Of a DNA stretch of 64,000 bases, positions 3,035-56,455 are shown piece after piece. Origin of the DNA: Actinomycetes bacterium (GTDB lineage: Bacteria; Actinomycetota; Thermoleophilia; RBG-16-64-13); contig JAGXFV010000009.1 in NCBI GenBank assembly GCA_024637095.1, positions 7,549 to 71,548 of the forward strand, given 5' to 3'. The notes below the pieces were generated by a model, which saw only the letters and a list, made by a program, of their open reading frames with translations, did not search any database and had not been told where the DNA came from. The position numbers and the translations under genes were made by a program. The first letter of the stretch is position 1. Every line of letters begins with the position of its first letter.

Positions 3035-3163
3035 TCCCGCTCGAAGTCCGGTGGAAGGCGCGACCGAGAGCCCGGCCGGAGTCGTTGCTATACTCTCTCG
3101 GTTGCGCCCAAGAGCGCTCCAATAGACCCGGTTTGTCCCTAGTTCCGGAGGTGCCCGCAGCAT

Positions 3164-4150
3164 ATGTACTTTCCCCAGTACCGGTCGCGCCGCATGCGGC
3201 AGAGTGAGACCCTCCGCGGGCTGGTCCGCGAAAACCGCCTGCATCCCGGCAGCTTCGTTTACCCCATGTTCGTCATCCACGGCGAGGATGTCCGCAATCC
3301 GGTGGCTTCCATGCCCGGCGTGTTCCAGTTCTCGATCAACCACCTGGTGGATGAAGCGCGAGAGGTGGCGGAACTGGGCGTCAAGAGCGTAATCCTCTTT
3401 GGAATCCCGGAGCAGAAGGACGAGGCTGCCTCCGGCGCCTACGACCCCGAAGGCGTAGTGCAGATGGCGACGCGGGCCCTCAAGCAGGAGGTGCCCGAGC
3501 TGACCGTGATGGCCGACGTCTGCCTTTGCGAATATATGAGCCACGGGCACTGCGGCGTGGTGCAGGAAGACCGGGTGCTCAACGATGTCTCGCTGGAACT
3601 TCTCGCGAACGCGGCCGTCAGTCTCGCCCACGCCGGGATCGACGTGGTCGCGCCCTCCGACATGATGGACGGCCGGGTGGGCGCCATCCGCTCGGCGCTC
3701 GACCAGGAAGGGCACACCGAGCTGCCGATCATGTCCTATAGCACCAAATACGCTTCGGCTTTCTACGGCCCATTTAGGGACGCTGCCGAATCGCCCCCGG
3801 CTTTCGGCGACCGCCGCTCCTATCAGATGGACCCGGCCAACTCGGACGAGGGAGTGCGGGAAGCCCTGATAGACATCGAGGAGGGGGCTGACGTCGTCAT
3901 GGTCAAGCCTGCTCTGCCCTACCTGGACCTGATCTATCGATTGAAGACGGAAACCCGCTACCCCGTCGCCGCTTACAATGTCAGCGGCGAGTACGCCATG
4001 GTCAAAGCGGCCGCCGAGAAGGGCTGGATCGACGAGAAGGCCGTGGTGCTCGAGACGCTGCTTGGGATCAAGCGCGCGGGGGCGGACATCATCATCACGT
4101 ATCACGCCAAGGACGCGGCCCGCTGGTTGGCCGAGGAGAGCAGTGCCTGA
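3164..4150 (+). CDS. hemB: porphobilinogen synthase
   Basis: DVCLCEYMSHGHCG, APSDMMDGRV, FYGPFRDAA, MVKPALPYLD, AYNVSGEYAM; RBS GGAGGT. Confidence 0.97.
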   Translation: MYFPQYRSRRMRQSETLRGLVRENRLHPGSFVYPMFVIHGEDVRNPVASMPGVFQFSINHLVDEAREVAELGVKSVILFGIPEQKDEAASGAYDPEGVVQMATRALKQEVPELTVMADVCLCEYMSHGHCGVVQEDRVLNDVSLELLANAAVSLAHAGIDVVAPSDMMDGRVGAIRSALDQEGHTELPIMSYSTKYASAFYGPFRDAAESPPAFGDRRSYQMDPANSDEGVREALIDIEEGADVVMVKPALPYLDLIYRLKTETRYPVAAYNVSGEYAMVKAAAEKGWIDEKAVVLETLLGIKRAGADIIITYHAKDAARWLAEESSA

Positions 4151-5301
4151 TGGAAGTAAGGGAGAAAACGCAGGAGCAGACCGAGGAGATCCAGTATCTG
4201 CCCAAGCTGATCGCTTGGGAGGTCACCCGCTCGTGCAACCTGTCCTGCAGGCATTGCCGGGCTTCGGCAGAGAAGGGTCCCTACCCCGGCGAGCTGACCA
4301 CCTCCCAGGGCAAGGCTTTGGTGGACGATATCGCCGCCTTCGCCAATCCGGTGCTCATCATGACCGGTGGCGATCCGCTGATGCGCGAGGACATCTGGGA
4401 ACTGGCCGAGTACGCTATTCATCAGGCCGGCCTGCGCGTGGTGATGTCTCCGAACGGCACGTTGGTGACGCCGGAAGCCGCGCGCAAAATGAAGGAGGTG
4501 GGAATCCCCCGGATCTCTATCTCGATTGACTTCCCCACCGCCGAGATGCACGATGAGTTCCGCGGCGTTACCGGCGCGTTCGAAGGCGCGGTACGTGGAG
4601 TTAAGACCGCTCTCGAGGCCGGCGTCCAGGTGCAGATCAACTCCACCATCACCAAGCTGAACGTGGACTTCCTGGACGATCTGCTCAACCTCTCCAAGGA
4701 ACTTGGGGCTGTAGCCTTTCATCCCTTCCTGCTGGTTCCCACCGGTCGCGGCAAACAGCTGGGACCGGAAGAGCTTCCCCCGGAGGACTACGAGCGCACG
4801 CTCAACTGGGTGTACGAGCGGCAGAAGACCTCGGACATCTTTTTCAAGCCCACCGACGCCCCGCACTATCACCGCATCATGCGCCAGCGGGCCAAAGAGG
4901 ACGGCACCGATCTGTCCGAACTCAAGATGCATCCTCATTCACACGCCATGATGGCCGGCGGGGTGGGCAAGTCCCGCGGACACGGCGATATGGATTCTCA
5001 CTCCAAAGGCTGTCTCGCCGGGACCGGCTTTTGCTTCATCAGCCACACCGGCAAGGTGCAGCCCTGCGGCTACTTCGACGTGGCGGCAGGCGACGTCAAA
5101 CAGCAGCCATTCAGCGAGATCTGGCGCACATCCGAACTCTTCCGCGATCTGCGGGACGTATCCAAGCTCAAGGGCAAGTGCGGCATCTGTGAGTACCGCC
5201 GGGTTTGCGGGGGCTGCCGGGCGCGGGCCTACGAGGTAACCGGGGACTACCTGGCCGAGGAGCCCTACTGCGTGTATGAGCCGGTTCGCCAGGGTTGCTG
5301 A
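4150..5301 (+). CDS. ahbD: radical SAM/SPASM heme b synthase of the siroheme-dependent (Ahb) pathway
   Basis: IAWEVTRSCNLSCRHCRASA (CX3CX2C), GCLAGTGFCFISH, SPASM KCGICEYRRVCGGCRARAY; in hem operon. AhbC not fully excluded. Confidence 0.8.
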   Translation: MEVREKTQEQTEEIQYLPKLIAWEVTRSCNLSCRHCRASAEKGPYPGELTTSQGKALVDDIAAFANPVLIMTGGDPLMREDIWELAEYAIHQAGLRVVMSPNGTLVTPEAARKMKEVGIPRISISIDFPTAEMHDEFRGVTGAFEGAVRGVKTALEAGVQVQINSTITKLNVDFLDDLLNLSKELGAVAFHPFLLVPTGRGKQLGPEELPPEDYERTLNWVYERQKTSDIFFKPTDAPHYHRIMRQRAKEDGTDLSELKMHPHSHAMMAGGVGKSRGHGDMDSHSKGCLAGTGFCFISHTGKVQPCGYFDVAAGDVKQQPFSEIWRTSELFRDLRDVSKLKGKCGICEYRRVCGGCRARAYEVTGDYLAEEPYCVYEPVRQGC

Positions 5302-5443
5302 GGTCCCTTCCCCAAGATGCGCTTTATTGCACTGGCAGCCGAGGGCGGATGACGCTACAGTCTAATCATGGAGAGTCACCGCTGGCGGTGGCCGATGCTG
5401 TGCGGAGTGGGATAGCTTCGCGCCGGGAGGGTAAGGAAGGAGG

Positions 5444-6877
5444 GTGGTCTCGCTGCCGAGCTTAGAGGATGGACGTCGCCGCATGATCCCCCACGCCGCC
5501 TTCCGCGTCGTGGGCCTTATGCTCCTTCTGGCGGCATTACTCACTCCCCTGCTTTCGGCATCGGTCCTGGCTGCTCCCGGCAGCACCAATGCGACCACGG
5601 GCACGACTCTCGCTCCCAACGATCCCGCGGCGGCAGGCGACCCGGCCAATGCCGACACCACCGTGATCACGGCCCCGCTATTCTCGGGTTCCGATGAGCA
5701 GCAGAAGGCTTTGGAAGAAGTGAAGCGGAAAGCCGAGGAAGCCCAGCGCCAGGCCCAGCAGATCGCTGAGCTTTCCGGGAGTATCCCCGGAGGTCTCTCT
5801 CAGGCGGACGAAGCGCAGCGCCGGGCCGCTGAAGTCCAGAGGCGGGTGGAGGAGATGGAGGCGCTTTCCTGGGAGATCACGGCCAAGCAGCAGGAGGTCA
5901 TCCGGGTCGCAGCCGAGATCCAGTTGATGGACGACGAACTGGCGGGTGTCGTCGAGGAGTACAACCGCCGCATGATCGAACTAGAAGAAGCCAAAACGGA
6001 GGCGGACAGCCTGCGCCGGGAACTGTCTCTGGCCGAGAAGCAACTGGAGACACTCGAGGCGATCCTGGAAGAGCGGGTGATTGGCGCATACAAGAGCGAT
6101 TCCTCCCCCCTGGAACTCCTCCTCGATACCACCGACGTTCAGGATCTGATCAAGCGCATGAGTTTCCTGATAACTCTTGCCCAGGACGACCAAGAGCGGG
6201 TGAGCGAAGCTTCATCGTTGCGTTCGCGAGTCGACCGCCTCCTCGACGACCTTTCGCGGAATATCTACGACGTGACTGTCGCCTCGGAGCGGCTCGACCA
6301 GCAGCGCCGCGTGATCGAGGGCAAGGTGGCCGAGCGCCAGGCCTATCTCGATACGCTAAACGCGGAGATCCGGGAGTTGGTTAACCAGCAACTGGACGTC
6401 GCCCGCAATGTCATGCCGGCCGACTTCAACCTGGCGGCCTTTCTCACGAGTGACGGCAACGCGGTGGTCAAGACGGCCCTCAAGTATCTCGGGGTGCCTT
6501 ATGTCTGGGGAGGCGAGACCCCCTCCGGCTTCGATTGCTCGGGCCTCACCCTCTACGTCTTCCGCCAGCATGGGGTCTACCTGCCGCACTACTCCGTTTA
6601 CCAGGCGATGATGGGCTATGGCGTTCCCCTGAACGCGCCCGAAGCGGGGGACCTGGTCTTCTTCGGCCGGCCGGTGCACCATGTCGGCATCTATATGGGC
6701 AATGACATGTACGTGCATGCCCCGCGCACGGGAGATGTGGTCAAGATCAGCCGGCTCTCAGCCCGCAGCGATCTGAGCCACGTCCGCCGCTTTACCTTCG
6801 CCCCGACCACCGACTCGTTGACCGCCGGCCTGGAGCAGGCGAGCACCGGAGCTCCCGCCCAAACGCAGGCTCCCTAG
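5444..6877 (+). CDS. secreted coiled-coil NlpC/P60 peptidoglycan endopeptidase (CwlO/RipA-like)
   Basis: Signal peptide, long coiled coil, LGVPYVWGG..GFDCSGL...HHVGIY; start uncertain (5444 or 5483). Confidence 0.88.
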   Translation: MVSLPSLEDGRRRMIPHAAFRVVGLMLLLAALLTPLLSASVLAAPGSTNATTGTTLAPNDPAAAGDPANADTTVITAPLFSGSDEQQKALEEVKRKAEEAQRQAQQIAELSGSIPGGLSQADEAQRRAAEVQRRVEEMEALSWEITAKQQEVIRVAAEIQLMDDELAGVVEEYNRRMIELEEAKTEADSLRRELSLAEKQLETLEAILEERVIGAYKSDSSPLELLLDTTDVQDLIKRMSFLITLAQDDQERVSEASSLRSRVDRLLDDLSRNIYDVTVASERLDQQRRVIEGKVAERQAYLDTLNAEIRELVNQQLDVARNVMPADFNLAAFLTSDGNAVVKTALKYLGVPYVWGGETPSGFDCSGLTLYVFRQHGVYLPHYSVYQAMMGYGVPLNAPEAGDLVFFGRPVHHVGIYMGNDMYVHAPRTGDVVKISRLSARSDLSHVRRFTFAPTTDSLTAGLEQASTGAPAQTQAP

Positions 6878-6956
6878 CCCCGTTCCGCCCTGGAGCTTCG
6901 CCGGAGAGCGAACAGGGCCTATCAGTGGTCCGGAGGGCGCGTGCTAACATCCTTCC

Positions 6957-8048
6957 GTGAACTCCGGCCGCGTCTACGTCGTCGACACCAACGCCCTCCT
7001 CAACGATCCGGAAGTGCTTTATTTCTTCTCTGGATCGGAGGTGGTGGTGCCCGCCGCCGTGCTCAAAGAACTGGATCACCTCAAGCGCCGCGGTAAAGAT
7101 CGACGCATCCGCTATCACGGACGCAAGGCCACCCGGCTGCTCTTCGAAGCCTCCCAGCATGGCCGCCTGGTCGATGGGGTTCCCCTCGGCAATGGTTCAA
7201 CTCTGCGCGTCGAGTCCAAAGGTGATTTCGAAGATGCCCCCGTGGACCTCGACCTGGAGCGCACGGACGACCTGATTCTCGCCCACGCCTGGGCGATCAA
7301 CCGGCGGCCCTTGGTGCGAGCGACCCTGGTCACCAACGACCTGAATATGCTGCTGCGTGCTGAGGCGATGGGGATCGATGCCTACCGGTTCGAGGGGAAG
7401 CTGGACCGGCTGCACCAGCAAGAGAGGGGGCTTCTCGAAAGGGCCCGCGAGCGCCGATGGACGCTGCTCTTCGCTTTTCTCGCGCTCCTCTTCCTGTCGT
7501 CGACCGCCTATCTGTACGTAACCCGGCCGGCCCAGGTGAATGTGGCCACCCTGCCTCAGGTGGACGACTCCTCACTGCTCCAGAGTCTTGGCATAGCTCC
7601 GTCGATACTGGAGGACTACTATCGCGGTCGGATTCGAGAGGACGAAGAGGATCTGGCCGCACACATCAACCTGGGGAACGTGCTCTTTGATCAGGGAGAG
7701 TTTCTGCAGGCGGTGGAGCACTATCGCACGGCTCTTCAGCAGGAACCGGACAACATGAGCGTGCTGACCGACACGGGGATCGCCCTCATGGAACTGGGCC
7801 ACAACCAGGAAGCCGTCGTCACCCTGAATAGGGCCGTGGGTCTCGCTCCCAGCGACAGCCTGATCAGCTACAATTTAGGGCTGGCCCATGCCTTGGGAGG
7901 CAACAGCGAAGAGGCGATCAGAAGTCTGGATAGGGCGGTCAGGCTCGCGGAAGAACAACAATTCGCCCGCTTTCCCCTGGAAGAGGCAAAACGGCTGATC
8001 GAGGACTTGCGGACCGGCAACAGCAACGCGGTCCGACGGGACTCTTAG
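6957..8048 (+). CDS. PIN domain - transmembrane helix - TPR protein
   Basis: YVVDTNALL, VLKELDHLK, DDLIL, LVTNDLNMLLRA (PhoH-associated PIN type); TM WTLLFAFLALLFLSSTAYLY; TPR repeats after it; TGcTAACAT 6 nt before GTG (leaderless-type). Confidence 0.8.
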   Translation: MNSGRVYVVDTNALLNDPEVLYFFSGSEVVVPAAVLKELDHLKRRGKDRRIRYHGRKATRLLFEASQHGRLVDGVPLGNGSTLRVESKGDFEDAPVDLDLERTDDLILAHAWAINRRPLVRATLVTNDLNMLLRAEAMGIDAYRFEGKLDRLHQQERGLLERARERRWTLLFAFLALLFLSSTAYLYVTRPAQVNVATLPQVDDSSLLQSLGIAPSILEDYYRGRIREDEEDLAAHINLGNVLFDQGEFLQAVEHYRTALQQEPDNMSVLTDTGIALMELGHNQEAVVTLNRAVGLAPSDSLISYNLGLAHALGGNSEEAIRSLDRAVRLAEEQQFARFPLEEAKRLIEDLRTGNSNAVRRDS

Positions 8049-39697: not shown

Positions 39698-40894
39698 GTG
39701 AAGTTCCTACCTCAGGATCAACTCGAGGCCTTCCTGTCGCACCTGGCGGAGTCGGCCATTGTGGTGGCCCCTCAGCGAGATCAGGACGGGGTGCTCTTCT
39801 TCCAGCCTTGGGAGGCGGGCGCCGAGGTGGAGTTCGAGCAGCTGCTCACTCGGCAGTCGCCCAAGGACTACGTCTTCCGGCAGACCGAGACCTACCTCAA
39901 GTTCGGCTACGAGATGAAGGGCAAGGCGGCGGCCGAAGAGGAAGAGGTCGGCAAGAAGTCCAAAGAGGGGGAGTTGGCGGCGGCCGAAGAGGCCCCCCCC
40001 GAAGGCGAAGAGCCGGCCCACGAGGTGCTCCAGGTGGAGGCCGTGGAAGATGCCCCCGAACAGGTGATCTTCGGTCTGCGCCCCTGTGACGCCCGCGGCT
40101 ACTACCAGATGGATCAGGTATTCGGTGGCTACGGCGGCTTCTACTACGACCCCTACTACATGGCGAAGCGCGAGGCTACCACCCTGGTGGCACTGACCTG
40201 CGCCCAGCCTTGGTCCACCTGCTTTTGCACGGCGGTCTACGGCAGCCCCAGCGGCACCGACGGGGTGGACCTGCTGCTGACCGGGATCGAGGGTGGCTTC
40301 ACCGCCGAAGCCGTGACCGAGCGCGGCGAAATGCTCCTGGGCTTTGGCGGTTTTACTGAGGTCGGGGACGGCCAGGCCGACGCGGCGCAAACCGTCAAGG
40401 ACGAGGCGTTCACCGCCATCGATCCGCCCTTTGAGATCGAAGGCGTGCCCCAGGGCCTGCGCGACAATTTCGAGGATCCCGCTTGGCACGACCTGCACAT
40501 GCGCTGCATCTCTTGCGGCACCTGCACCTACGTCTGTCCCAACTGCTACTGCTTCAACATCACCGACGAGATGGTGGAGAAGTCGGGCGAACGGGTGCGC
40601 ACTTGGGATAACTGCTTCAACCCGGGCTATACGCTCGAAACCTCGGGTCACAACCCGCGCGAGCAGAAGTTTGCCCGCTTCCGCAACCGCTTCAGCCACA
40701 AGTTCTCGTATTACCCCGAGAAGTACGACAGCCTGCTGTGCTCGGGCTGCGGTCGCTGCATCCGCTACTGCCCCACGAAGATCGATTTGCGCGAGGTGAT
40801 TCGCACACTGGGTCAGCCGCACCCGGACCAGGCGGCGCCCGCAGAGGACGGCGAGGCAGCTGGGGTCCACGCCCAGACTGGGGAGGACCTGTAG
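39698..40894 (+). CDS. flxB: FlxB (AsrA-like) iron-sulfur subunit
   Basis: FGLRPCD, CISCGTCTYVCPNCYCF, RTWDNC, CSGCGRCIRYCP. Confidence 0.87.
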   Translation: MKFLPQDQLEAFLSHLAESAIVVAPQRDQDGVLFFQPWEAGAEVEFEQLLTRQSPKDYVFRQTETYLKFGYEMKGKAAAEEEEVGKKSKEGELAAAEEAPPEGEEPAHEVLQVEAVEDAPEQVIFGLRPCDARGYYQMDQVFGGYGGFYYDPYYMAKREATTLVALTCAQPWSTCFCTAVYGSPSGTDGVDLLLTGIEGGFTAEAVTERGEMLLGFGGFTEVGDGQADAAQTVKDEAFTAIDPPFEIEGVPQGLRDNFEDPAWHDLHMRCISCGTCTYVCPNCYCFNITDEMVEKSGERVRTWDNCFNPGYTLETSGHNPREQKFARFRNRFSHKFSYYPEKYDSLLCSGCGRCIRYCPTKIDLREVIRTLGQPHPDQAAPAEDGEAAGVHAQTGEDL

Positions 40895-41968
40895 ATGGCG
40901 AAGAAACGCGACAAAACCCGGCCGACGAAGGACCAAGCGGCCCCGGCGGAAACCCAGAAGAAGGCTCGCACCCAGGACGCCACGGACCAGCCCGCCGGTA
41001 ACGGCGGCAATCACGTCGGCCGCCAGGCGCCGGAGATCCATAATCCGGTCAAGACGGGCGGCGTCCAGAGCGGCGGCCGCCAACGACTCACCCGCGACGA
41101 CATCAAGCCCGGTGCCACCATCGCCGCCGCGCGTAACGCGGCCGGCAATCCCTACTTGCCCGAGCCGGCCACCATCGTCGAGATCGTGCCGGAGACGCAC
41201 AACATCAAGTCATTCCGGGTGCGTTTCGACGATGACCAGGTGATGGAAAACTTCTCCTTCGCCCCGGGCCAGGTAGGCCAGTTGGGCATTTTCGGCGTAG
41301 GGGAGTCCACCTTCGCCATCAACTCCAGTCCCTCGAACAAGGACTACCTGCAATTCTCGGTGATGCGCACCGGCGAGGTGACCACCGCCCTGCACAATCT
41401 GAGCGTGGGCGACAAGGTGGGGGTGCGGGCCCCCATGGGCTGCGGCTTCCCCGTGGATGAGTGGAAGGGCAAGAAGATCTTCTACATCATGGGCGGGATC
41501 GGCTCCGCTGCCCTGCGCGCCACGATCCACTACACTTTGGAGCACCGCGCCGACTACGACGACATCACCATCCTCTACGGCGCCCGTTCCCCCGACGACC
41601 TCACCTATAAGTACGACATCGACGACTGGATGGCCCGCGACGACCTCAACGCGGTGATCACTATCGACCGCGAGGTGCCTGGCTGGGACAAGCGGGTGGG
41701 CTTTGTGCCCGCCGTGCTCGAAGAGGAGCAGCCGCGGCCCAAGGACACTATCGCCATCACGTGCGGCCCTCCCATCATGATCAAGTTCGTGCTGCAGAGC
41801 TTGGAGAAACTCCAGTTCACCGATGACCAGATCTACACGACGCTCGAGAAGCGGATGAAGTGCGGCATCGGCATCTGCGGCCGCTGCAACATGGGCCCCA
41901 GGTACGTCTGCGTGGACGGCCCGGTCTTCTCGATGGCCGAACTGCGGGAACTGCCCGACGAGATGTAA
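40895..41968 (+). CDS. flxA: FlxA (AsrB/PyrK-like) FAD/NAD-binding subunit
   Basis: GVGESTF, VRAPMG, GGIG, CGPPIM, EKRMKCGIGICGRC...CVDGPVF. Confidence 0.88.
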   Translation: MAKKRDKTRPTKDQAAPAETQKKARTQDATDQPAGNGGNHVGRQAPEIHNPVKTGGVQSGGRQRLTRDDIKPGATIAAARNAAGNPYLPEPATIVEIVPETHNIKSFRVRFDDDQVMENFSFAPGQVGQLGIFGVGESTFAINSSPSNKDYLQFSVMRTGEVTTALHNLSVGDKVGVRAPMGCGFPVDEWKGKKIFYIMGGIGSAALRATIHYTLEHRADYDDITILYGARSPDDLTYKYDIDDWMARDDLNAVITIDREVPGWDKRVGFVPAVLEEEQPRPKDTIAITCGPPIMIKFVLQSLEKLQFTDDQIYTTLEKRMKCGIGICGRCNMGPRYVCVDGPVFSMAELRELPDEM

Positions 41969-47365: not shown

Positions 47366-47436
47366 TCTCGCGGACCTGGACATCGACCCGGGTGAGCGGG
47401 GCCGGCGGCCGGCCGTCGCGGTGGTACCCTGGAGGG

Positions 47437-47913
47437 GTGGACACGTCGGTTGCCAGGGAGTCCTTTATCGAGGGCCTCGAGCGTTTCTTCGCCGAGCGCT
47501 CGGACGTCGCTGCGGCCTACCTCTTCGGGTCGGCGGTGGGCGACCGGTTTGGCCCCATGAGCGACGTTGACATCGCGGTGCTCGCGACAGGCGACATAGC
47601 GGGCGCTGAGTCACCGGACTCACCCGACCCGGTTCCGCCTGAACTGACCGACCTGCAGTTGGAGCTCGCCGGGCGGCTGCCGAGCCTCGTCGGAGGCCGG
47701 TGCGTGGACGTCTTGATGCTCAACCGCGCTCCCGTCCGGGTTGCCTTCCCCGCGGTGCACGAAGGGCGCTTGTTGAGTGGGTCCGACCGCCCAGAAAGGG
47801 TGCTCTTCGAGGTCGACCTGCTGCGTCGGTACACCGACTATCGGCCGGTGATTCGCGAGTATCAGTCAGCACTTCGGGCACGCATCAAACGGGGCGAGTT
47901 CTTTGGTCGCTGA
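47437..47913 (+). CDS. MNT nucleotidyltransferase antitoxin (MntA-like)
   Basis: AYLFGS-x10-DVDIAV (GSX10DXD), VDVLMLN. Confidence 0.88.
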   Translation: MDTSVARESFIEGLERFFAERSDVAAAYLFGSAVGDRFGPMSDVDIAVLATGDIAGAESPDSPDPVPPELTDLQLELAGRLPSLVGGRCVDVLMLNRAPVRVAFPAVHEGRLLSGSDRPERVLFEVDLLRRYTDYRPVIREYQSALRARIKRGEFFGR

Positions 47914-48389: not shown

Positions 48390-48905
48390 ATGAAGCTGAG
48401 CAGCCTTGAAGTCATTCTCTCGGCACTTAATGAGGCAGGTGTTGAGTACCTCGTTGCGGGTGGAGTCGCCGTCAATGCCTATGGCTATCAGCGGCTGACC
48501 CAGGATCTCGATCTGGTGGTCGGTCTTGCCCAGGACAACACCCGGCGGGCCCTCGACGTTCTGTCGGCCCTCGGCTACCGACCGATGGTGCCGGTCGACA
48601 TTCACGACTTCGAGGACGCGGCCCATCGTCAACGGTGGATTACAGAGAGGAACATGGAGGTTTTCTCTCTGGCGAGCGACCGGTACCCCGAGACGGAAGT
48701 CGATCTGTTCGCATCCGAGCCCTTCGATTTCGCGGAGGAACTCAAAGCGGCGGAAGTCTACGAAATCGGCCGGGGCATTCGCCTGCCGCTCGTCCGGCTT
48801 ACCAGCCTCATTTCGATGAAGGAGCGAACCGGTCGTTCTTCAGATGCGGATGACGTGCGCCACCTGCGTTGGGTCCTCGAGGAACGCGGAGGTCCGGACC
48901 AATGA
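48390..48905 (+). CDS. nucleotidyltransferase-fold protein (AbiEii/DUF6036-like)
   Basis: YLVAGGVAVNAYGYQRLTQDLDL, LISMK...GR..D..D. Confidence 0.75.
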   Translation: MKLSSLEVILSALNEAGVEYLVAGGVAVNAYGYQRLTQDLDLVVGLAQDNTRRALDVLSALGYRPMVPVDIHDFEDAAHRQRWITERNMEVFSLASDRYPETEVDLFASEPFDFAEELKAAEVYEIGRGIRLPLVRLTSLISMKERTGRSSDADDVRHLRWVLEERGGPDQ

Positions 48906-49129: not shown

Positions 49130-49279
49130 CCCGGGGGTTCTCGCTCGTCAGGAGATCACTCGGAGCGTAGCGAGATCTATATCTAGTGCCTTTCTCCAGA
49201 TTCCGACCCGGCCGGCCACCGGGAGCCGCCCCGGACAGCGCGTGGCCGTGTGGGCTTTGCTCAAAAAGAGGAGGTGCGC

Positions 49280-49867
49280 GTGATTCCTCTTTCAGTGACT
49301 CCGCTTAGAATCGTGGTCGCTCCCCGTTGGGGGGCAAGTTCCAGCGACGACTGGTATCCCTGGCTGCGGGCGGAACTCGCGGCCTCACAGAAGTTCGGCG
49401 AGGTATTGGTGGCGGACATGCCCGATCCGGACGAGCCCCGCATTGGTCCGTGGACCGAGCGCTTGGCCGAACTTACGGGGAGCGATCAGGACCAGCTGGA
49501 GGGCACGCTGCTCGTGGGGCATAGCGTAGGGTGCCGGGCGATCCTCAACTTCCTCGGCGAGCTACCCGCGGGCACGCAGGTTCTGGGCACGATCTGTGTG
49601 GCCGGATGGTGGACGGTAGACGAGCCCTGGGACAGCCTGCTGCCCTGGATTGAGCACCCGCTCGATCTCGACCGAGTGCGGAAGGCGGGAGGGGAGTTCG
49701 AGGTGTTGCTTTCGGACAACGACCCCTTCACTGCCGACGCTCAGGCAAATGCACGGCTATGGCGGAAGCGTCTCGGAGCCGAGGTTCGTATGGTGCCGGG
49801 GGCCGAGCACTTTAACCGCGCAAAGGAGCCGCAGGTGCTCGCGGCAATTCGGCGATGGCGGATATGA
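49280..49867 (+). CDS. RBBP9/YdeN-family serine hydrolase
   Basis: WYPWL, MPDPDEP, VGHSVGC, SDNDP, HF; RBS GAGGAGG. Confidence 0.87.
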   Translation: MIPLSVTPLRIVVAPRWGASSSDDWYPWLRAELAASQKFGEVLVADMPDPDEPRIGPWTERLAELTGSDQDQLEGTLLVGHSVGCRAILNFLGELPAGTQVLGTICVAGWWTVDEPWDSLLPWIEHPLDLDRVRKAGGEFEVLLSDNDPFTADAQANARLWRKRLGAEVRMVPGAEHFNRAKEPQVLAAIRRWRI

Positions 49868-49971: not shown

Positions 49972-50004
49972 CTCGCTCCTAACTCGCTCCTAACTCGCTC
50001 CTAA
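49972..50004. repeat. 11-bp tandem repeat x3
   Basis: (CTCGCTCCTAA)3. Confidence 0.95.
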
Positions 50005-50099
50005 CCGTCGTACTCGTCGCTCGGGCCGATTGGGCTTTGCCCCCCGGGCGGGGGCGTGAATGTTAGCTACCGCCTCTCTTTTTCGGGTAGAAGCCCCGT

Positions 50100-50900
50100 A
50101 TGCGTGAGTTGCGGATAGCCAACTTTCTTTCGCCGCTCCTGGAGCCGGTGTACCGACTCGTCGCCGAGGAAGTGGGCCGAGAGTTCGACGTGCCCGTGGA
50201 ATTCGTAAACGGCCGATCCTTTTCGCAGTTTGCTTCGGGCGAGGTCGACGCGGGCTTCATCTGAGGCCTGCCCTACGTGCTCCTGCGGCGGGAGGATCCT
50301 CCACCGGTGGAGCTGCTGGCCGCTCCCGTGTTGGAGGGCGAGCGCTATCAGAATCGTCCGATCTACTTCTCCGACGTAATCGTTCGCCGGGGTAGCGACA
50401 TGGTTGGGGGCTTCGAGGCGCTGCGCGGCCGTTCGTGGGCTTATAACGACCCGTTTTCCCACTCGGGTTACAACCTCACCCGTTACGAGTTGATCCGCCG
50501 CGGCGAGACCGGAGGCTTTTTTGGCAGGGTAGTCGAGGCCGGTTCCCACCTCAACGCTCTGGGCTTGGTGGCGGCGGGAACGGTAGATGCTGCCGCCATC
50601 GATTCGCAGATTCTCGCCGTCGTGTTTCGCGATTCGCCGGAACTGGCGGAATCGCTGCGAGTGATCGATGTATTCGGTCCCTCGACTATCCAACCGATGG
50701 TGGCGGCATCGCGGCTGCCGCAGGGTATCAAGGAGCGCCTGCGCGCGCTGCTGCTCGATTTGCCCGGGGGTGAACGCTCGCGCTCGGCGCTCGGCTACGG
50801 TTTCGTGCGCCGCTTCGCCCCGGTGACCGACGCGGATTACGACGATATCCGCGACATGCTCGGTGCGGCCGAGGATCTCGGGTTCATGTCCTTGCGCTGA
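50100..50900 (+). CDS. PhnD-like binding-fold protein, probable selenoprotein (TGA codon 55)
   Basis: ATG 50100 in frame with ORF 50277-50900; VDAGFI-TGA-GLPYV; Y.SDVIVR, AYNDPFSHSGY, GSH..AL..V..G.VDAAAIDS; hairpin 15 nt after TGA. Confidence 0.75.
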
Positions 50901-51092
50901 AGCCGGTTCATCCGTGGCGCTTTCCGACAACCTCACCCATCAAACGGGATCATGAATTTGATCGCCATCTAGAGACGTCTTCCTGCGTGAGCGGGATTTA
51001 TTGCCCTTCAGGCGGACTGAGCGCTACCCCACCCGGGGGGGCTGTAGTACAGTTCACCACTCGGGTACTTAATATGCAGGGGGATCGCACAG

Positions 51093-52394
51093 TTGTGCAA
51101 GATTTTGGTGGCCGGTGGCGGTTGGGCGGGAGTGGCTGCGGCCTACGCTGCCAGGCTCGCCGGCGCCGAAGTCCAACTGCTCGAGCGGACCGACATGCTG
51201 CTCGGAACCGGCCTCGTGGGCGGGATCCTACGTAACAACGGGCGCTTCACCGCCACCGAAGAGCACATCGCTCTGGGCATGGACGGGCTCTGGTCGGTGA
51301 TCGACGAGAATCTGCGCCACCGTGACGTGCGCTTTCCCGGCCATGAGCACGCCGATCTCTACGATGTCACTACCATCGAGCCGGCCGTGCGCCGTTTTCT
51401 CGAAGTGCAGGGAGTTGAGCTTCACATGCGCACTCGGGTGAGCCGGTCCGCGCACGACGGCGCCCGGCTCACGGCTGTGGCGGCCGCCGATGTGTGGTTC
51501 GAGGCGGACGCCTTCGTCGATGCCACCGGCTCCTTCGGGCCGCAGGGCAACTGCACCCGGCATGGAAACGGATGCGCGATGTGCATCCTTCGCTGCCCCA
51601 GTTTTGGCGGCCGGGTGAGCCTGGCGCAGGAGGCGGGCATCGCCGAATTGCGGGCAACGCGCATGGACGGCACTGTCGGGGTGATGAGTGGCTCCTGCAA
51701 GCTCCATTCCGACTCGGTCTCGCCGGAATTGCGGGCTCAGCTTGCCGATACCGGCGTCGCCGTGGTTCCGTTGCCGGCGGAACTGCGAGAGGGCAAGGAC
51801 GAGTTACTGGGGGCAAAAGCCTGCCAGCAGTATGCGCTACCCGAGTTCGCCGAGAATCTGGTGCTGCTCGACACCGGCCACGTCAAGCTGATGACTCCCT
51901 TCTTCCCTCTGGATCAGTTGCGGCGCGTACCCGGGTTGGAGAATGCCCGCTACGAAGACCCCTATGCCGGAGGGATCGGCAACTCCATCCGCTACCTCGC
52001 GATGACTCCTCATCGGGAGGATCTGCGCTGCGAGACCATCGACAATCTCTTCGTCGGCGGAGAGAAGACGGGGCCTTTTGTGGGGCACACGGAGGCGATG
52101 GTGAGCGGCTCGCTCGCCGGGCTGAACGCCGCACTCGGGGCGGATGGGCGTGAGCCCTTGATTCTGCCGCCGACTCTCGCGGTCGGCGATGCATTGGCCG
52201 CCGTGGGCGAGGTGATGCACGCGGGACTTCTCAGCCGCAAGCTCACCTTCTCCGGCTCCTGGTACTTCGAGCGAATGAAGGACAAGGGGCTCTACAGCAC
52301 CGATCGGGACGAGATCGGGCGGCGGGTGCAGGAGGCGAGGTTGACCGGAGTCTTCAAGAAGGCAGGAAGGGCCCAAGGCGCTTCCGTCGCCTAA
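51093..52394 (+). CDS. FAD-dependent oxidoreductase, GidA/MnmG-like short family
   Basis: VAGGGWAG, LLERTDMLLGTG, Cys motif GNCTRHGNGCAMCILRC, NLFVGGEK..FVGHTEA. Confidence 0.75.
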   Translation: MCKILVAGGGWAGVAAAYAARLAGAEVQLLERTDMLLGTGLVGGILRNNGRFTATEEHIALGMDGLWSVIDENLRHRDVRFPGHEHADLYDVTTIEPAVRRFLEVQGVELHMRTRVSRSAHDGARLTAVAAADVWFEADAFVDATGSFGPQGNCTRHGNGCAMCILRCPSFGGRVSLAQEAGIAELRATRMDGTVGVMSGSCKLHSDSVSPELRAQLADTGVAVVPLPAELREGKDELLGAKACQQYALPEFAENLVLLDTGHVKLMTPFFPLDQLRRVPGLENARYEDPYAGGIGNSIRYLAMTPHREDLRCETIDNLFVGGEKTGPFVGHTEAMVSGSLAGLNAALGADGREPLILPPTLAVGDALAAVGEVMHAGLLSRKLTFSGSWYFERMKDKGLYSTDRDEIGRRVQEARLTGVFKKAGRAQGASVA

Positions 52395-52433: not shown

Positions 52434-53576
52434 ATGAAGCGCATCGGGATTTTGGGCTGGGCGGCGCTGCTATTGCTGCTGGGGCTGGCGGTTATCGTCG
52501 GCTGCGGCGACGACGAACCGGCGGTCGACACCACTGAGGGCACGGAAGTCACCGAGGCGGGGGCCGGGGAGACCCAGGCCGGCGAAGGCACGGCCGATTT
52601 CCAGCCGCTTGATCCCCGGGTAGAGGTCAACGTGGCCTTTGACGATGCTCCCGGCACGGCCGGCATCATCCTGGCCGACAAGTTCGGCTTCTTCGACGAG
52701 GTCGGCATCGATATCAAATACACCAAATTCAATACCGGCGCCGACATGTATACGTCACTGGCCGCCGACCAGGTGGACGTGGGGCGCGGCATCATCACGG
52801 CCTCTCTCTTCAACGGGGCCGCTCGGGACATCGCCGTGCGCGTGGTCGCCGACAGTGGGACCAACGTGGAAGGCGCGGGCAATTACTTCGGCCTCGTGCT
52901 GCGCAAAGAGATCGCCGACGAGATTCAGGACTACAGCGATCTCGAGGGCCGCAAGATCCTGATCGTCTCCCGAGGGAGCATCAACGAACTCTTTCTTGAG
53001 CTTGCCTTGGCCAAGGGCGGCCTGACCATCGAGGACGTCGACGCGACGGTCATTGATTCCTTTTCCGACCTCAACATTGCTCTGGCCAACGGGGCCGCCG
53101 ATGCAGCGGTTCAGATCGAGCCCCTGATCACGCGCGGCGAACAGGAGGACATCCTGGTGGCCTTCGGGGACGCCTCGGAATACGCGCCCGACGAGCAGGT
53201 GGCCGCTCTCCTCTACGCACCATCCTTCGCCGAGAAGACCGATGTGGCCCAGGCTTTCATGATCGCCTATCTGAAAGGCGTACGCATGTACAACGACGCC
53301 ATCGTCATGGGCGACAAGGACCGGGAGGAGGTCGTCCGGGTGCTCAGCGAGAACACCTTCGTGGACGACCCTGAGCTCTGGACCATCATGCGTCCCACGG
53401 GACTCAACCCGGACGGCGAGGTCAACGCCGAAGCGGTTTCCCGCGATCAGCGCTTCTACGTGGAGAAGGGACTGGTCGAAGAACCGGCGCCGATCGAGGA
53501 AGTGGTCGACAACTCGTTCGCGGAGTTCGCTGTCGATTATCTGGGGCCGTACGAGCCGCCGGCCGAGGGGCAGTAA
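52434..53576 (+). CDS. NitT/TauT/SsuA-type ABC transporter substrate-binding lipoprotein
   Basis: Lipobox IVG-C, A..FGFF.E.G.D, DLEGRKI, DAAVQIEP. Confidence 0.85.
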   Translation: MKRIGILGWAALLLLLGLAVIVGCGDDEPAVDTTEGTEVTEAGAGETQAGEGTADFQPLDPRVEVNVAFDDAPGTAGIILADKFGFFDEVGIDIKYTKFNTGADMYTSLAADQVDVGRGIITASLFNGAARDIAVRVVADSGTNVEGAGNYFGLVLRKEIADEIQDYSDLEGRKILIVSRGSINELFLELALAKGGLTIEDVDATVIDSFSDLNIALANGAADAAVQIEPLITRGEQEDILVAFGDASEYAPDEQVAALLYAPSFAEKTDVAQAFMIAYLKGVRMYNDAIVMGDKDREEVVRVLSENTFVDDPELWTIMRPTGLNPDGEVNAEAVSRDQRFYVEKGLVEEPAPIEEVVDNSFAEFAVDYLGPYEPPAEGQ

Positions 53577-53582
53577 GAAGAA

Positions 53583-54449
53583 GTGGGCAGCACAACGGAG
53601 GACTACGGCGTGGTGGCGAATCAGAGTACAGCGGTTTCGGAAGAGACGGTTCCGCGGGAGCAGCCGGAGTGGCGCCGTCTGCGGCCTTCCTCGGACAGGC
53701 TGAGGAGCCTCCTCGGCCTGCTGTCGCCGTTGGCCCTCTTGCTGCTCTGGGAAGCGGGCGTGCATCTGGGATTCGTGGACTACCGCTTCTTCCCGGCGCC
53801 GACAAGCATCCTGATGGAGACCTGGGACATGCTGCTTTCGGGCGAATTGGTCAGGGACATGGGTTGGAGTCTGTCCCGGATCTTTGTCGGCTTCTTCGGA
53901 GGCGGTTTTCTCGGCCTGATCGTGGGCCTCTCCATGGGGTTGTTCAGACCGGTGCGTTTGTTGCTTCGGCCGATCGTGTCCGCCATCTATCCGATCCCCA
54001 AGCTGGCGCTCTATCCTCTGATCTTGCTGGTATTCGGCATCTCCGAGACGGCCATGTACTTCACCATCGGGCTCGGGACCTTCTTCATGGTGCTGATCAA
54101 CACCCAAGCGGGAGTGCTCAACCTGGACAAGATCTACCTGGATGTGGCCAAGAACTACGGTGCCAGTCGCAAGGATTACTACCTGAAGATCGCCTTGCCT
54201 GGAGCCCTACCCTTGATCTTCACCGGTATCGAACTGGGTATGGGCATGGCGCTCCTGCTGATCGTGGCCGCGGAAATGGTAGGCGCGGACGCCGGAATTG
54301 GCCAGAACATATGGACGGCCAGAGACACCTTCCAGATCGAGAAGATGTTCGTCTCGTTCTTTCTGATCGCCCTGCTGGGGTATCTGTTCGCCGAACTGCT
54401 CGCTGCGATTGAGCGCCGAATCGTCCCCTGGAAGCGCCAGGAGGGTTGA
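53583..54449 (+). CDS. NitT/TauT ABC transporter permease
   Basis: FFPAP, SLSRI, IPKLALYPL, LPGALP, AAEM. Confidence 0.9.
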   Translation: MGSTTEDYGVVANQSTAVSEETVPREQPEWRRLRPSSDRLRSLLGLLSPLALLLLWEAGVHLGFVDYRFFPAPTSILMETWDMLLSGELVRDMGWSLSRIFVGFFGGGFLGLIVGLSMGLFRPVRLLLRPIVSAIYPIPKLALYPLILLVFGISETAMYFTIGLGTFFMVLINTQAGVLNLDKIYLDVAKNYGASRKDYYLKIALPGALPLIFTGIELGMGMALLLIVAAEMVGADAGIGQNIWTARDTFQIEKMFVSFFLIALLGYLFAELLAAIERRIVPWKRQEG

Positions 54450-55291
54450 TGGCCGACAGCAAGATCGTCCTGCAGGAGCTGACCAAAGAGTTCAAGGTGA
54501 AGAACGGCGTGCTCACCGCCGTGGATCATGTGAACCTGCGCGTACGCGAGGGCGAGTTTCTGTGCATCGTGGGACCGAGCGGCTGCGGGAAGACCACGCT
54601 GCTGCGCATCCTGGCGGGTCTGGAGACCGCAACCTCCGGCCAAATGCGAATCGCCCAGCGCAATCCTGACAAGCCGCTGAACTCGATGGTGTTTCAGGAC
54701 CAGTCGATCTTTCCCTGGATGAGCGTGCGCAAGAACATTTCCTTCGGTCTCGAGTGCCGAGGCGTGGACCGCCGGACCACGCGTGCCGTCGCCGATCGCT
54801 ACATCGAGATGGTGGGCTTGACCAAGTTCGCCGACGCCTATCCCTTCCAGCTGTCGGGGGGCATGAAGCAGCGGGTGAGCGTGGCCCGCGCCTTCGCCAA
54901 CGACCCCGAGATCCTCCTGATGGACGAGCCCTTCGCCGCGCTCGACGAGCAAAACAAGTTGCTGCTCCAGGAAGAACTGTTGCGCATCTGGGAGGGCTCG
55001 AACAAGACGGTGGTCTTCATCACCCACTCGATCGACGAAGCCCTGGTGTTGGCCGACCGGGTCATCGTGATGACCGCTCACCCCGGCACCTTCAAGGAGG
55101 AGGTCGAGATCAACCTGCCCCGGCCTCGCCATATCGCCGAGTTGCGACAGGATCCCTACTTCAACGAGCTCTTTGCCCAGGTTTGGGAGATCCTCAAGGA
55201 CGAGGTCGCCAAGGCCAAGGAGCGAGAGGGCTACTCCTTCCACCGCCGGGAGCGCAGCGCACTCGACGACGAATCGCATATGGTGATGTAG
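54449..55291 (+). CDS. NitT/TauT ABC transporter ATP-binding protein
   Basis: GPSGCGKTT, LSGGMKQR, LLMDEPF, ITHSIDEA. Confidence 0.95.
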   Translation: MADSKIVLQELTKEFKVKNGVLTAVDHVNLRVREGEFLCIVGPSGCGKTTLLRILAGLETATSGQMRIAQRNPDKPLNSMVFQDQSIFPWMSVRKNISFGLECRGVDRRTTRAVADRYIEMVGLTKFADAYPFQLSGGMKQRVSVARAFANDPEILLMDEPFAALDEQNKLLLQEELLRIWEGSNKTVVFITHSIDEALVLADRVIVMTAHPGTFKEEVEINLPRPRHIAELRQDPYFNELFAQVWEILKDEVAKAKEREGYSFHRRERSALDDESHMVM

Positions 55292-55453: not shown

Positions 55454-56455
55454 ATGGCGGACAATGTCATTCTACTTCTGGTCAGTCTCGTGATTATACT
55501 TGCCGGCTGCGAGCTGTTTGTTAACGGCGTCGAGTGGTTCGGGCGGCATCTCGAACTCGGCGAAGGCGCGGTGGGCAGCGTGCTTGCGGCGGTCGGCACC
55601 GCGCTCCCCGAGACTCTCATCCCCATCATCGCGATATTCTTCGGGAGCGACGAGAGCGGTCACGAGATCGGTATCGGCGCCATATTGGGTGCGCCCTTCA
55701 TGCTCGTGACCCTGGCCATGTTCGTCAACGGCGTGGCCATCGTCATCTTCGCCGCGCGGGGGAGACGGACCCGGGAGGTCCGCATCAACCGCACGATCCT
55801 CTCCCGCGACCTGGCCTACTTCCTAGCCACCTACAGCCTCGCGGTCCTCGTCGGCATCGTCGACCCCGGCTCCACCATAAAGTTGCTGGTGGCGATCCTG
55901 CTGCTGGTCGGGTACGGGCTCTATGTCTACCGCACTATGCGCGCCGAAGGCGATCTGGAAGGTGAGACCCGCGCCCTTTACTTTCATTACACCACCGGGG
56001 CCCCGGACTTCCGGCGGATCTTGCTGCAATTACTGGTCGCCCTTAGCGCGATCGTCTTCGGAGCCGAGCTCTTCGTGGGCGAGCTCACCGTGCTGGCGGA
56101 AGGGCTGGGGGTCCCGGCTCTGGTGATCTCGTTGTTGCTGACGCCGGTTGCCACCGAACTGCCGGAGAAGTTCAACAGCGTCTTCTGGATGCGGGAGCGC
56201 AAGGATACCCTTGCCATGGGCAACATCACCGGGGCGATGGTGTTCCAGAGCGCCATCCCCGTGTCCGTGGGGCTGCTCTTCACCGATTGGAATCTGGAGA
56301 GCTCCGCCCTATTGGCGGCAGGGCTGGCGCTATTATCGGGTTCGCTTCTCTGGTTGCGAATTCGGGCGACCGGGACTCTTGGGGTGAACTCGCTCCTGTT
56401 TGGCGGGCTTCTGTACGGCGTCTTCCTGACGATCACTCTGGTCCGTGTCCTCTAA
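55454..56455 (+). CDS. sodium:calcium antiporter (YrbG/CaCA family)
   Basis: Two alpha repeats GTALPE and ATELPE, about 10 TMs; TAGAAT 8 nt before ATG. Confidence 0.85.
   Translation: MADNVILLLVSLVIILAGCELFVNGVEWFGRHLELGEGAVGSVLAAVGTALPETLIPIIAIFFGSDESGHEIGIGAILGAPFMLVTLAMFVNGVAIVIFAARGRRTREVRINRTILSRDLAYFLATYSLAVLVGIVDPGSTIKLLVAILLLVGYGLYVYRTMRAEGDLEGETRALYFHYTTGAPDFRRILLQLLVALSAIVFGAELFVGELTVLAEGLGVPALVISLLLTPVATELPEKFNSVFWMRERKDTLAMGNITGAMVFQSAIPVSVGLLFTDWNLESSALLAAGLALLSGSLLWLRIRATGTLGVNSLLFGGLLYGVFLTITLVRVL

Follow-up and report, generated by a model that had tools for sequence, protein, structure and literature searches.

A probable selenoprotein of the PhnD/AioX binding-protein fold encoded across an in-frame UGA codon in an actinomycete genome

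The DNA analyzed here is a stretch of 64,000 nucleotides (hereafter the window; positions 7,549 to 71,548 of contig JAGXFV010000009.1, assembly GCA_024637095.1) from an Actinomycetes bacterium of the Thermoleophilia, whose genome we call G000 (assembly completeness 96.55%). At positions 50100..50900 of its plus strand we found a gene which very probably encodes a selenoprotein, with the in-frame UGA codon at 50262..50264 decoded as selenocysteine (Sec). In a listing of open reading frames (ORFs) based on translation table 11 the gene is split into 50100..50264 (ATG start, 54 aa) and 50277..50900 (GTG start, 207 aa), which share one frame. If TGA is translated as U, a continuous protein of 266 residues results, with TGA 50262-64 (U55) as the sole internal stop and TGA 50898-900 as terminator. 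An earlier note, made from the sequence alone, had supposed that the listed ORF at 50277 lacks its N-terminus and that the frame opened by ATG 50100 is interrupted only by this TGA in 266 codons, and both suppositions agree with the translation, as the 207-aa frame is missing the N-terminal lobe and 50100..50264 lies in the same frame. A longer N-terminus is impossible due to an in-frame TAG (50088-90) three codons 5' of the ATG; a stop at the same distance is present in the same-genus relative G001. The TAG is contained in a Shine-Dalgarno-like sequence on the plus strand, GGTAGAAG (50086..50093), located 6 nt 5' of the ATG, and because this sequence corresponds to GGTAGGAG at equal spacing in G001, the start looks Shine-Dalgarno-led rather than leaderless. 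The leaderless type of start assumed in the earlier note was therefore given up, which does not affect its main claim. A scan of the region revealed no promoter-like site and one terminator-like site, a hairpin followed by a T-rich tail at 50981..50996 of the plus strand, 80 nt past the stop codon, which is weak evidence, as a mean of 1.8 such sites in shuffled sequences indicates no excess.

We read this UGA as Sec on four lines of evidence: the Sec machinery of the genome, the conservation of the codon, the pairing of Sec with cysteine (Cys) forms and a hairpin of the selenocysteine insertion sequence (SECIS) type. The machinery is present in G000 with scores above the curated cut-offs in each case (selA 555 bits, selB 325 bits, selD 397 bits and tRNA-Sec 74.9 bits with a gathering score of 47). 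Neither selA nor selB of G000 contains an internal stop, which indicates that TGA is not generally reassigned in this genome. One in-frame TGA is located within selD itself, and SelD of G000 (L010, G000:C40:12598-13521, minus strand; local sequence SHGSG-U-ACKLG) appears to be a selenoprotein in its own right.

The protein was matched in 9 of 41 related genomes, and the seven strong matches (G000, G001, G004, G006, G008, G019 and G022; 53-100% identity) were all flagged with one TGA. In tblastn alignments the stop falls in the same column in seven related genomes, in the context GF[I/L]*GLPYV and with conserved protein on either side, and a scan of species genomes added a further TGA form at that column in an Anaerolineae metagenome-assembled genome (MAG; locus L067). 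Since the sequence of locus L078 is identical to that of L025 (G022), it was counted once, which leaves eight distinct TGA forms. The TGA is thus found at the same column in eight distinct genomes with a protein identity of 52-88%, and the N-terminal 54 codons are kept as protein. A selA gene above the cut-off was detected in six of the seven related carriers, and the remaining one, G022, yielded none at a completeness of 76%. Contigs from two other studies (X3, X4 and X5) span positions 50108-50896 with approximately 89-98% identity, and the codon 50262-64 is unchanged among the differences listed, a listing which omits 59 rows. Among the sequencing runs found to contain the stretch there is none of RNA. 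The Sec-form copies of G008 (L024) and G019 (L027) carry frameshifts in their C-terminal half, which may be assembly errors or signs of decay.

The homologs outside this set carry Cys at the column of the UGA. All 116 full-length sequences among 120 database matches have Cys at this position, with GFICGLPY as the dominant motif, and the other four (P0002-P0005, 197-207 aa) are gene calls starting just past the codon. A further 78 genomic loci all have a Cys codon here, TGC in 62 and TGT in 16, and an extended set of 150 representatives (clustered at 50% identity and reaching down to about 35% identity) contains 142 sequences with Cys, six truncated sequences and two with other residues in poorly aligned rows. 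The motif F-x-C-G-L-P-Y, which the earlier note had named, is therefore indeed typical of the family, and the checks it had proposed gave a positive answer with respect to Sec machinery in the genome, Cys rather than Trp aligned to the TGA and a TGA that recurs beyond this assembly. In a quick and poorly resolved tree the Sec label needs four changes, of which well-supported branches force only one, and this tree supports neither a single nor a multiple origin of the Sec forms.

The hairpin zone extends over 50278..50295 of the plus strand, corresponding to +17..+34 relative to the U of the UGA. In the window the stem CUCCUG/CGGGAG (50280-50294) begins 15 nt past the UGA and encloses the loop CGG, or UGCGGCG with the inner pairs open. 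In six of the eight TGA forms, positions +17..+22/+29..+34 build a 6-bp stem with few or no mismatches around a 6-nt loop (UGAUGC, UGGUGC or UGAUAC), and the window and G001 form CUCCUG-CGG-CGGGAG at +19..+33 around the same centre as the other TGA forms; every loop contains a G. In the alignment of these eight mutually related rows, 81% of the cells in 17-22/29-34 are paired in comparison with 65% in column shuffles (0 of 500 reached 81%). Changes on both sides occur in three of the six pairs, and sliding the partner by one to three columns lowers pairing to 25-65%. With the register fixed, the Sec forms pair 6, 6, 6, 6, 5, 4, 4 and 2 of the six positions, whereas none of the 78 Cys forms pairs all six (maximum five, in 2 of 78). 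Averaged over the eight Sec forms, the folding energy of +13..+42 amounts to -9.7 kcal/mol, versus -5.8 kcal/mol over the 78 Cys forms. The SECIS hairpin of selD in G000 is located at +17..+23/+28..+34 with the loop GGAC, and its outer bounds match those of the present hairpin. The hairpin that the earlier note had proposed at 50280-94, with a G in the loop, thus exists, covaries and lies within the bounds of the selD element. A search of 50000-51000 against Rfam with E-values up to 10 yielded nothing relevant, as expected for a generic bacterial SECIS.

The predicted protein belongs to the phosphonate-binding family PF12974 (E-value 4.5e-34, 118.3 bits with a cut-off of 27, model positions 16-242 of 242), in line with the PhnD-like fold suggested before. 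The transporter equivalogs of this family stayed far below their cut-offs (TIGR01098 78.8 versus 112 bits; TIGR03431 78.3 versus 261 bits), as did TIGR04553 for a putative selenate ATP-binding cassette (ABC) transporter binding protein (38.4 versus 250 bits). In a scan against NCBIfam release 20.0 with E-values up to 0.01, neither of the SaoB/SaoX models NF040727 and NF040735 matched. An AlphaFold2 model based on an alignment of 40 sequences (pLDDT 94.7, pTM 0.90) shows a two-lobe binding-protein fold, in which residue 55 is placed between strand 51-53 and helix 56-63, at the N-terminus of the helix and thus at the classic anion-binding position. In a sequence profile search of the PDB, ArrX was found first (6x6b, E-value 3.3e-32), followed by AioX (6esk, 6esv and 8ed5, E-values of about 5e-32) and, further down, by PtxB (5.5e-18) and PhnD of E. 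coli (6e-10). Structural comparison with Foldseek gave the same picture, as ranks 1-10 in the PDB are all ArrX or AioX with template modelling (TM) scores of 0.76-0.84 and identities of 27-30%. The alignment and the confident model place the predicted protein, which has no signal peptide, in the Cys-bearing AioX/ArxX/ArrX branch of the PhnD (PF12974) fold.

The closest solved relatives are sensors. AioX is the periplasmic arsenite-binding sensor of AioXSR, and its structures (6esk, 6esv, 6eu7 and 8ed5) share the PhnD-type two-lobe fold with our model at TM scores of 0.81-0.84. According to Badilla et al. (2018; PMC5908839), the pocket of AioX consists of Tyr88, Cys106, Tyr131, Ser161, Ser163, His192 and Asp210, the arsenite is linked to the sulphur of Cys106, and PhnD has Gly at this place. 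A hand count on the profile alignment, in which 38 has to be added to the AioX chain numbering to obtain the numbering of that paper (checked on Tyr88 and Cys106), assigned Phe41, Sec55, Tyr89, Ser120, Ser122, His150 and Asp168 as the equivalents. The AioX pocket is therefore kept at six of seven residues if Sec for Cys is counted as kept, with Y131, S161, S163, H192 and D210 retained as Y89, S120, S122, H150 and D168, and the exception is Tyr88, which is replaced by Phe41. All seven positions are invariant in the family alignment of 40 sequences, and all but position 41, which varies between W, Y and F, are conserved in 142-148 of the 150 representatives. As Sec55 aligns with the arsenite-bonding Cys106 of AioX and ArrX also has Cys in this column, Sec appears to stand in place of the very residue that is characteristic of the arsenic-oxyanion branch. 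The best sequence match, which also occupies Foldseek ranks 1-3, is ArrX, a periplasmic sensor for arsenate from Chrysiogenes arsenatis (6x6b, 6xl2, 6x8w and other entries); it binds arsenate and phosphate non-covalently with dissociation constants of 1 and 150 uM (PMC5908839). The differences are nevertheless considerable: AioX acts in the periplasm together with a sensor kinase and a response regulator, and ArrX, an exported protein, has a two-component system as its partner, whereas the present protein is predicted to be cytoplasmic and lacks such conserved neighbors. In addition, AioX has neither the Sec found for Cys in eight genomes nor the extra invariant residues of the present family. 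The ABC binding proteins PhnD, PtxB and HtxB for phosphonate, phosphite and hypophosphite have the same fold and Pfam family and share the pocket side with Ser-x-Ser, His and Tyr, but PhnD has Gly in the Cys/Sec column, and the present protein has neither a signal peptide nor a cognate permease.

Within the family alignment there is only one conserved Cys/Sec. The family is large, with 282 representatives at 50% identity for E-values up to 1e-30, 1420 up to 1e-10 and 3604 up to 1e-3, and the named carriers are mostly MAGs of Chloroflexota, Actinomycetota and Gemmataceae. A search for longer homologs as possible fused forms gave three proteins, all of which seem to be miscalled merges or to have wrong-frame N-termini, and fusions were therefore discarded.

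The predicted location is the cytoplasm, as there is no lipobox and no room for a signal peptide. The stop three codons before the ATG limits the N-terminus of the present protein, and fewer than 15 residues precede the first strand in 97 of the 124 representatives that include this strand, which upholds the statement of the earlier note that a signal peptide is absent. About five representatives with plausible signal peptides are the most distant ones and have a different first-strand motif. The absence of an adjacent permease, which had been claimed as well, is not correct in the literal sense: a NitT/TauT-type ABC transporter (52434-55291), consisting of an NMT1-family binding protein (380 aa), a BPD_transp_1 permease (288 aa) and an ATPase (281 aa), lies 2.7 kb downstream on the same strand. 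As it recurs only in the same-genus relative G001, we do not regard this transporter as a partner, and the main claim is unaffected. The gene is preceded by a Ser_hydrolase gene (49250-49867) and followed by a gene for a GIDA/FAD protein of 433 aa (51093-52394), whose likeness to TrmFO/MnmG is weak (28-31 bits versus cut-offs of 262-525) and which is probably a different flavoenzyme, judged by these scores; a Na_Ca_ex protein (55454-56455) is encoded 3' of the transporter. The arrangement of Ser_hydrolase, GIDA/FAD and transporter genes is common only to G001. Across 86 loci no conserved neighbor gene was found, neither by all-against-all clustering of ORFs in 81 loci nor by a Pfam tally of 149 of 153 flanking ORFs (the four omitted are each under 95 aa), and none of the 86 loci revealed a conserved ABC permease or ATPase partner. 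The commonest families in the tally are MFS_1 (9) and Sugar_tr (6), followed by TauE, ETF, Virulence_fact and sigma-70 (3 each), and Response_reg occurs twice. A gene of the major facilitator superfamily (MFS) is located directly upstream in eight actinomycete loci and matches generic MFS models only.

Taken together, we consider it likely that the gene encodes a selenoprotein which carries Sec at the pocket position used by AioX to bond arsenite. Of the proposed mechanism, the decoding step is shown by the comparative evidence: the UGA at 50262-64 would be decoded by the SelA/SelB/SelD/tRNA-Sec system, aided by the SECIS-type hairpin about 15 nt downstream. By alignment and model, Sec55 is situated where a helix begins, within the cleft that separates the two lobes, and is surrounded by Y89, S120, S122, H150, D168 and F41. 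The cleft could shut on a ligand such as a small oxyanion or the hydroxide of a metalloid, to which the selenolate, expected to be fully ionised at cell pH, might bind covalently. The likeliest ligands would be As(III) or As(V), or the chemically similar Sb(III) or selenite. The protein may then hold the ligand as a chaperone or buffer, or it may begin a reduction which is finished by an external thiol as in single-Cys arsenate reductases, and in both cases it would act alone, without an ABC transporter or a sensor kinase. That a cytoplasmic branch of the arsenic-sensor fold has turned into such a stand-alone selenoenzyme or seleno-chaperone, whose selenolate captures or reduces arsenate, arsenite, antimonite or selenite, is a tentative idea which we regard as possible but rather doubtful. 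The suggestion of the earlier note, a catalytic or metal- or metalloid-binding Sec on a cytoplasmic binding fold, therefore holds as far as the position is concerned, given the alignment of Sec55 with Cys106 and the nearest relatives AioX and ArrX, and stays conditional for ligand and reaction.

Several points weigh against this interpretation. The incorporation of selenium, the ligand and any reaction are all things that we infer from sequence and model. The identity to AioX and ArrX is merely 27-30%, and an identical pocket does not fix the ligand, as AioX and ArrX differ in their ligands despite the same pocket. In addition, the extra invariant residues R82, Y83, W113, N116, R128, Q170 and Q198 would allow a ligand larger than a bare oxyanion. 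With regard to the hairpin, those of the window and G001 have a 3-nt loop and are displaced from the common register, L067 agrees poorly with that register (2 of 6 pairs), and the Sec forms are related to each other, so that covariation and pairing counts are not independent events. Among the 25 commonest of 132 flanking families, there is no ars, kinase or ABC partner. Finally, two carriers (G006 and G019) possess, in addition, an LMWPc gene beside Acr3, and LMWPc, ArsC and the present gene are all missing from nine genomes of the same family that do have Acr3.

The last two points bear in particular on the alternative that the protein is a new kind of cytoplasmic arsenate reductase, in which As(V) would be bound in the pocket and attacked by Sec55, after which an external thiol would set As(III) free for Acr3 to export. 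G000 indeed contains an arsenic efflux locus (L120, G000:C35:18126-22115) with Acr3 and a permease of the ArsP_1 family, and LMWPc (PF01451, TIGR02691) and ArsC (PF03960, TIGR00014) were not found in its 96.55%-complete assembly; of the 25 genomes in its family, 19 carry Acr3 and 6 LMWPc, and none carries ArsC. Moreover, ArrX binds arsenate with the same pocket, and arsenate reductases of other folds that contain Sec are among the selenoproteins listed in Table 1 of PMC13188914. Against this idea, the phyletic pattern is not complementary, as two carriers possess both genes and nine Acr3 genomes neither; the gene never lies next to ars genes in the loci examined, judged by the 25 commonest flanking families; and the single conserved Cys/Sec means that a partner thiol would be needed. 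The replacement of a missing arsenate reductase was therefore rejected as a general explanation on the distribution in the 41 genomes and stays a minority reading, and we regard a genuine arsenate reductase as unlikely.

As a second possibility, the Sec/Cys protein may serve methyl-group (one-carbon) catabolism instead of metalloid handling, either as an enzyme or as a carrier, and might trap or transfer a one-carbon unit or bind a carboxylate such as glycine betaine or dimethylglycine. This is suggested by the surroundings of the gene in two lineages. In G006 (L116, G006:C1:1705382-1722155, 2981-7909) the Sec gene adjoins a corrinoid methyltransferase cluster with a B12-binding protein, two URO-D-type methyltransferases, CobW and Pterin_bind. 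In six Acidimicrobiia MAG loci (L099, L105, L107, L108, L109 and L111) the Cys form is part of a catabolic cluster of the glycine-betaine/dimethylglycine type, which comprises two DMGDH-like genes (about 800-835 aa), ETF beta, ETF alpha, a PF13769 protein and formate-tetrahydrofolate ligase; here the Cys form shares its strand with the DMGDH-like, ETF beta and ETF alpha genes and lies 3' of them. Three of these loci also contain Pterin_bind, and an MttB-family methyltransferase was seen in L109 alone. According to the titles of PDB entries, acetate or malonate occupies the pocket in ArrX crystals, which would fit a small carboxylate as well. However, this context is restricted to 7 of 86 loci, such genes are absent from the window and the neighbors at other loci are unrelated. 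As the pocket residues are those of oxyanion binders and no one-carbon enzyme with this fold and motif is known, we consider a role in methyl-group catabolism to be improbable.

If the TGA were a true stop, one would be dealing with a pseudogene, with two separate genes (54 and 207 aa) or with a mistake in sequencing or assembly. The 207-aa form is what gene callers yield (P0002-P0005), and the additional frameshifts in the copies of G008 and G019 would agree with decay. We nevertheless regard this as very unlikely, since the TGA recurs at the same column in eight distinct genomes of 52-88% identity with 54 conserved codons in front of it, is accompanied by a positioned, covarying hairpin and the full Sec machinery, and is unchanged among the differences listed for the contigs of two other studies; furthermore, a protein of 207 aa would be missing the pocket residue as well as strands 1-3 of lobe 1. 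It is barely conceivable that the protein is the ordinary binding protein of the ABC transporter at 52434-55291, as its permease and ATPase 2.7 kb downstream on the same strand and the naming of PF12974 after transporter binding proteins might suggest, or that TGA encodes Trp or Gly under an altered code, because there is neither a signal peptide or lipobox nor room for one, the transporter owns an NMT1-type binding protein and recurs only in G001, homologs have Cys instead of Trp or Gly at the column, selA and selB are free of in-frame TGA and the gene itself terminates in TGA.

Coming back to a selenoprotein with Sec in the AioX-like pocket, its comparison with known selenoproteins indicates that the family is uncatalogued. 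Table 1 in a review of the prokaryotic selenoproteome from May 2026 (PMC13188914) covers 119 families and subfamilies without any PF12974, PhnD or AioX-like entry, and the only entries with a binding-protein fold in that inventory are SaoB, SaoX and BtuF. These three have in common with the present protein that Sec is located on a fold of the periplasmic-binding-protein type and, according to their description, Sec is proposed as a metal or metalloid ligand and not for thiol-disulfide redox chemistry. The same description relates SaoB to the amino-acid binders 3VVE and 4ZV2 and SaoX to 4NMY and 2X26, so they belong to families different from the present protein, and it describes exported transporter subunits with CU or UxP motifs encoded in a nine-gene locus, whereas the protein described here is predicted to be cytoplasmic, is encoded alone and has the motif GF(I/L)UGLPY. 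In their preprint, Haft and Gwadz (2022) state that no earlier Sec-containing ABC substrate-binding protein was known to them. A Sec form of ArrX is not known to have been described, and a literature search for AioX in combination with selenocysteine, which did not extend to ArrX, returned nothing relevant. In the literature searched on selenoproteins related to PhnD, AioX or binding proteins we found no description of the family, with the supplementary lists of BSepDB (PMC13326102) and of the deep-learning papers outside this search. By these comparisons this is a real but uncatalogued selenoprotein family, in agreement with the expectation of the earlier note that it is poorly described or new.

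The family is of interest for several reasons. Automatic annotation shortens the Sec forms to 207 aa (P0002-P0005), as is evident from the database entries. The selenium would be located exactly where the solved relative AioX bonds arsenite, which offers a testable case of Sec as a metalloid ligand or nucleophile outside the redox proteins of the thioredoxin fold. The Cys forms constitute a sizeable uncharacterised family of predicted cytoplasmic proteins, and a result on any member would annotate many genes. In addition, the family seems to be a clean case of the recruitment of a transporter or sensor binding fold into the cytoplasm. If the assumption of a metalloid selenoenzyme or chaperone is true, the PhnD/AioX family would gain its first Sec protein, and the handling of arsenic in the cytoplasm a third solution without structural relation to the others, widespread as Cys forms in Chloroflexota and Actinomycetota of soil.

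Some further features of the window were recorded beside the selenoprotein gene. The 230-nt intergenic region 5' of the gene contains a perfect 11-nt tandem repeat, CTCGCTCCTAA, in 3.1 copies (49972-50005), followed 3' by a G+C-rich inverted repeat at about 50041-50057. Two small nucleotidyltransferase-type ORFs lie close together at 47392-47913 and 48390-48905 (Polbeta/NTP_transf_2 and DUF2204/NTP_transf_5) and may form a toxin-antitoxin-like pair. At 39698-41968 a Fer4_22 4Fe-4S dicluster protein (398 aa) adjoins a protein with NAD_binding_1 and DHODB_Fe-S_bind domains (357 aa), an arrangement resembling an electron-transfer module.

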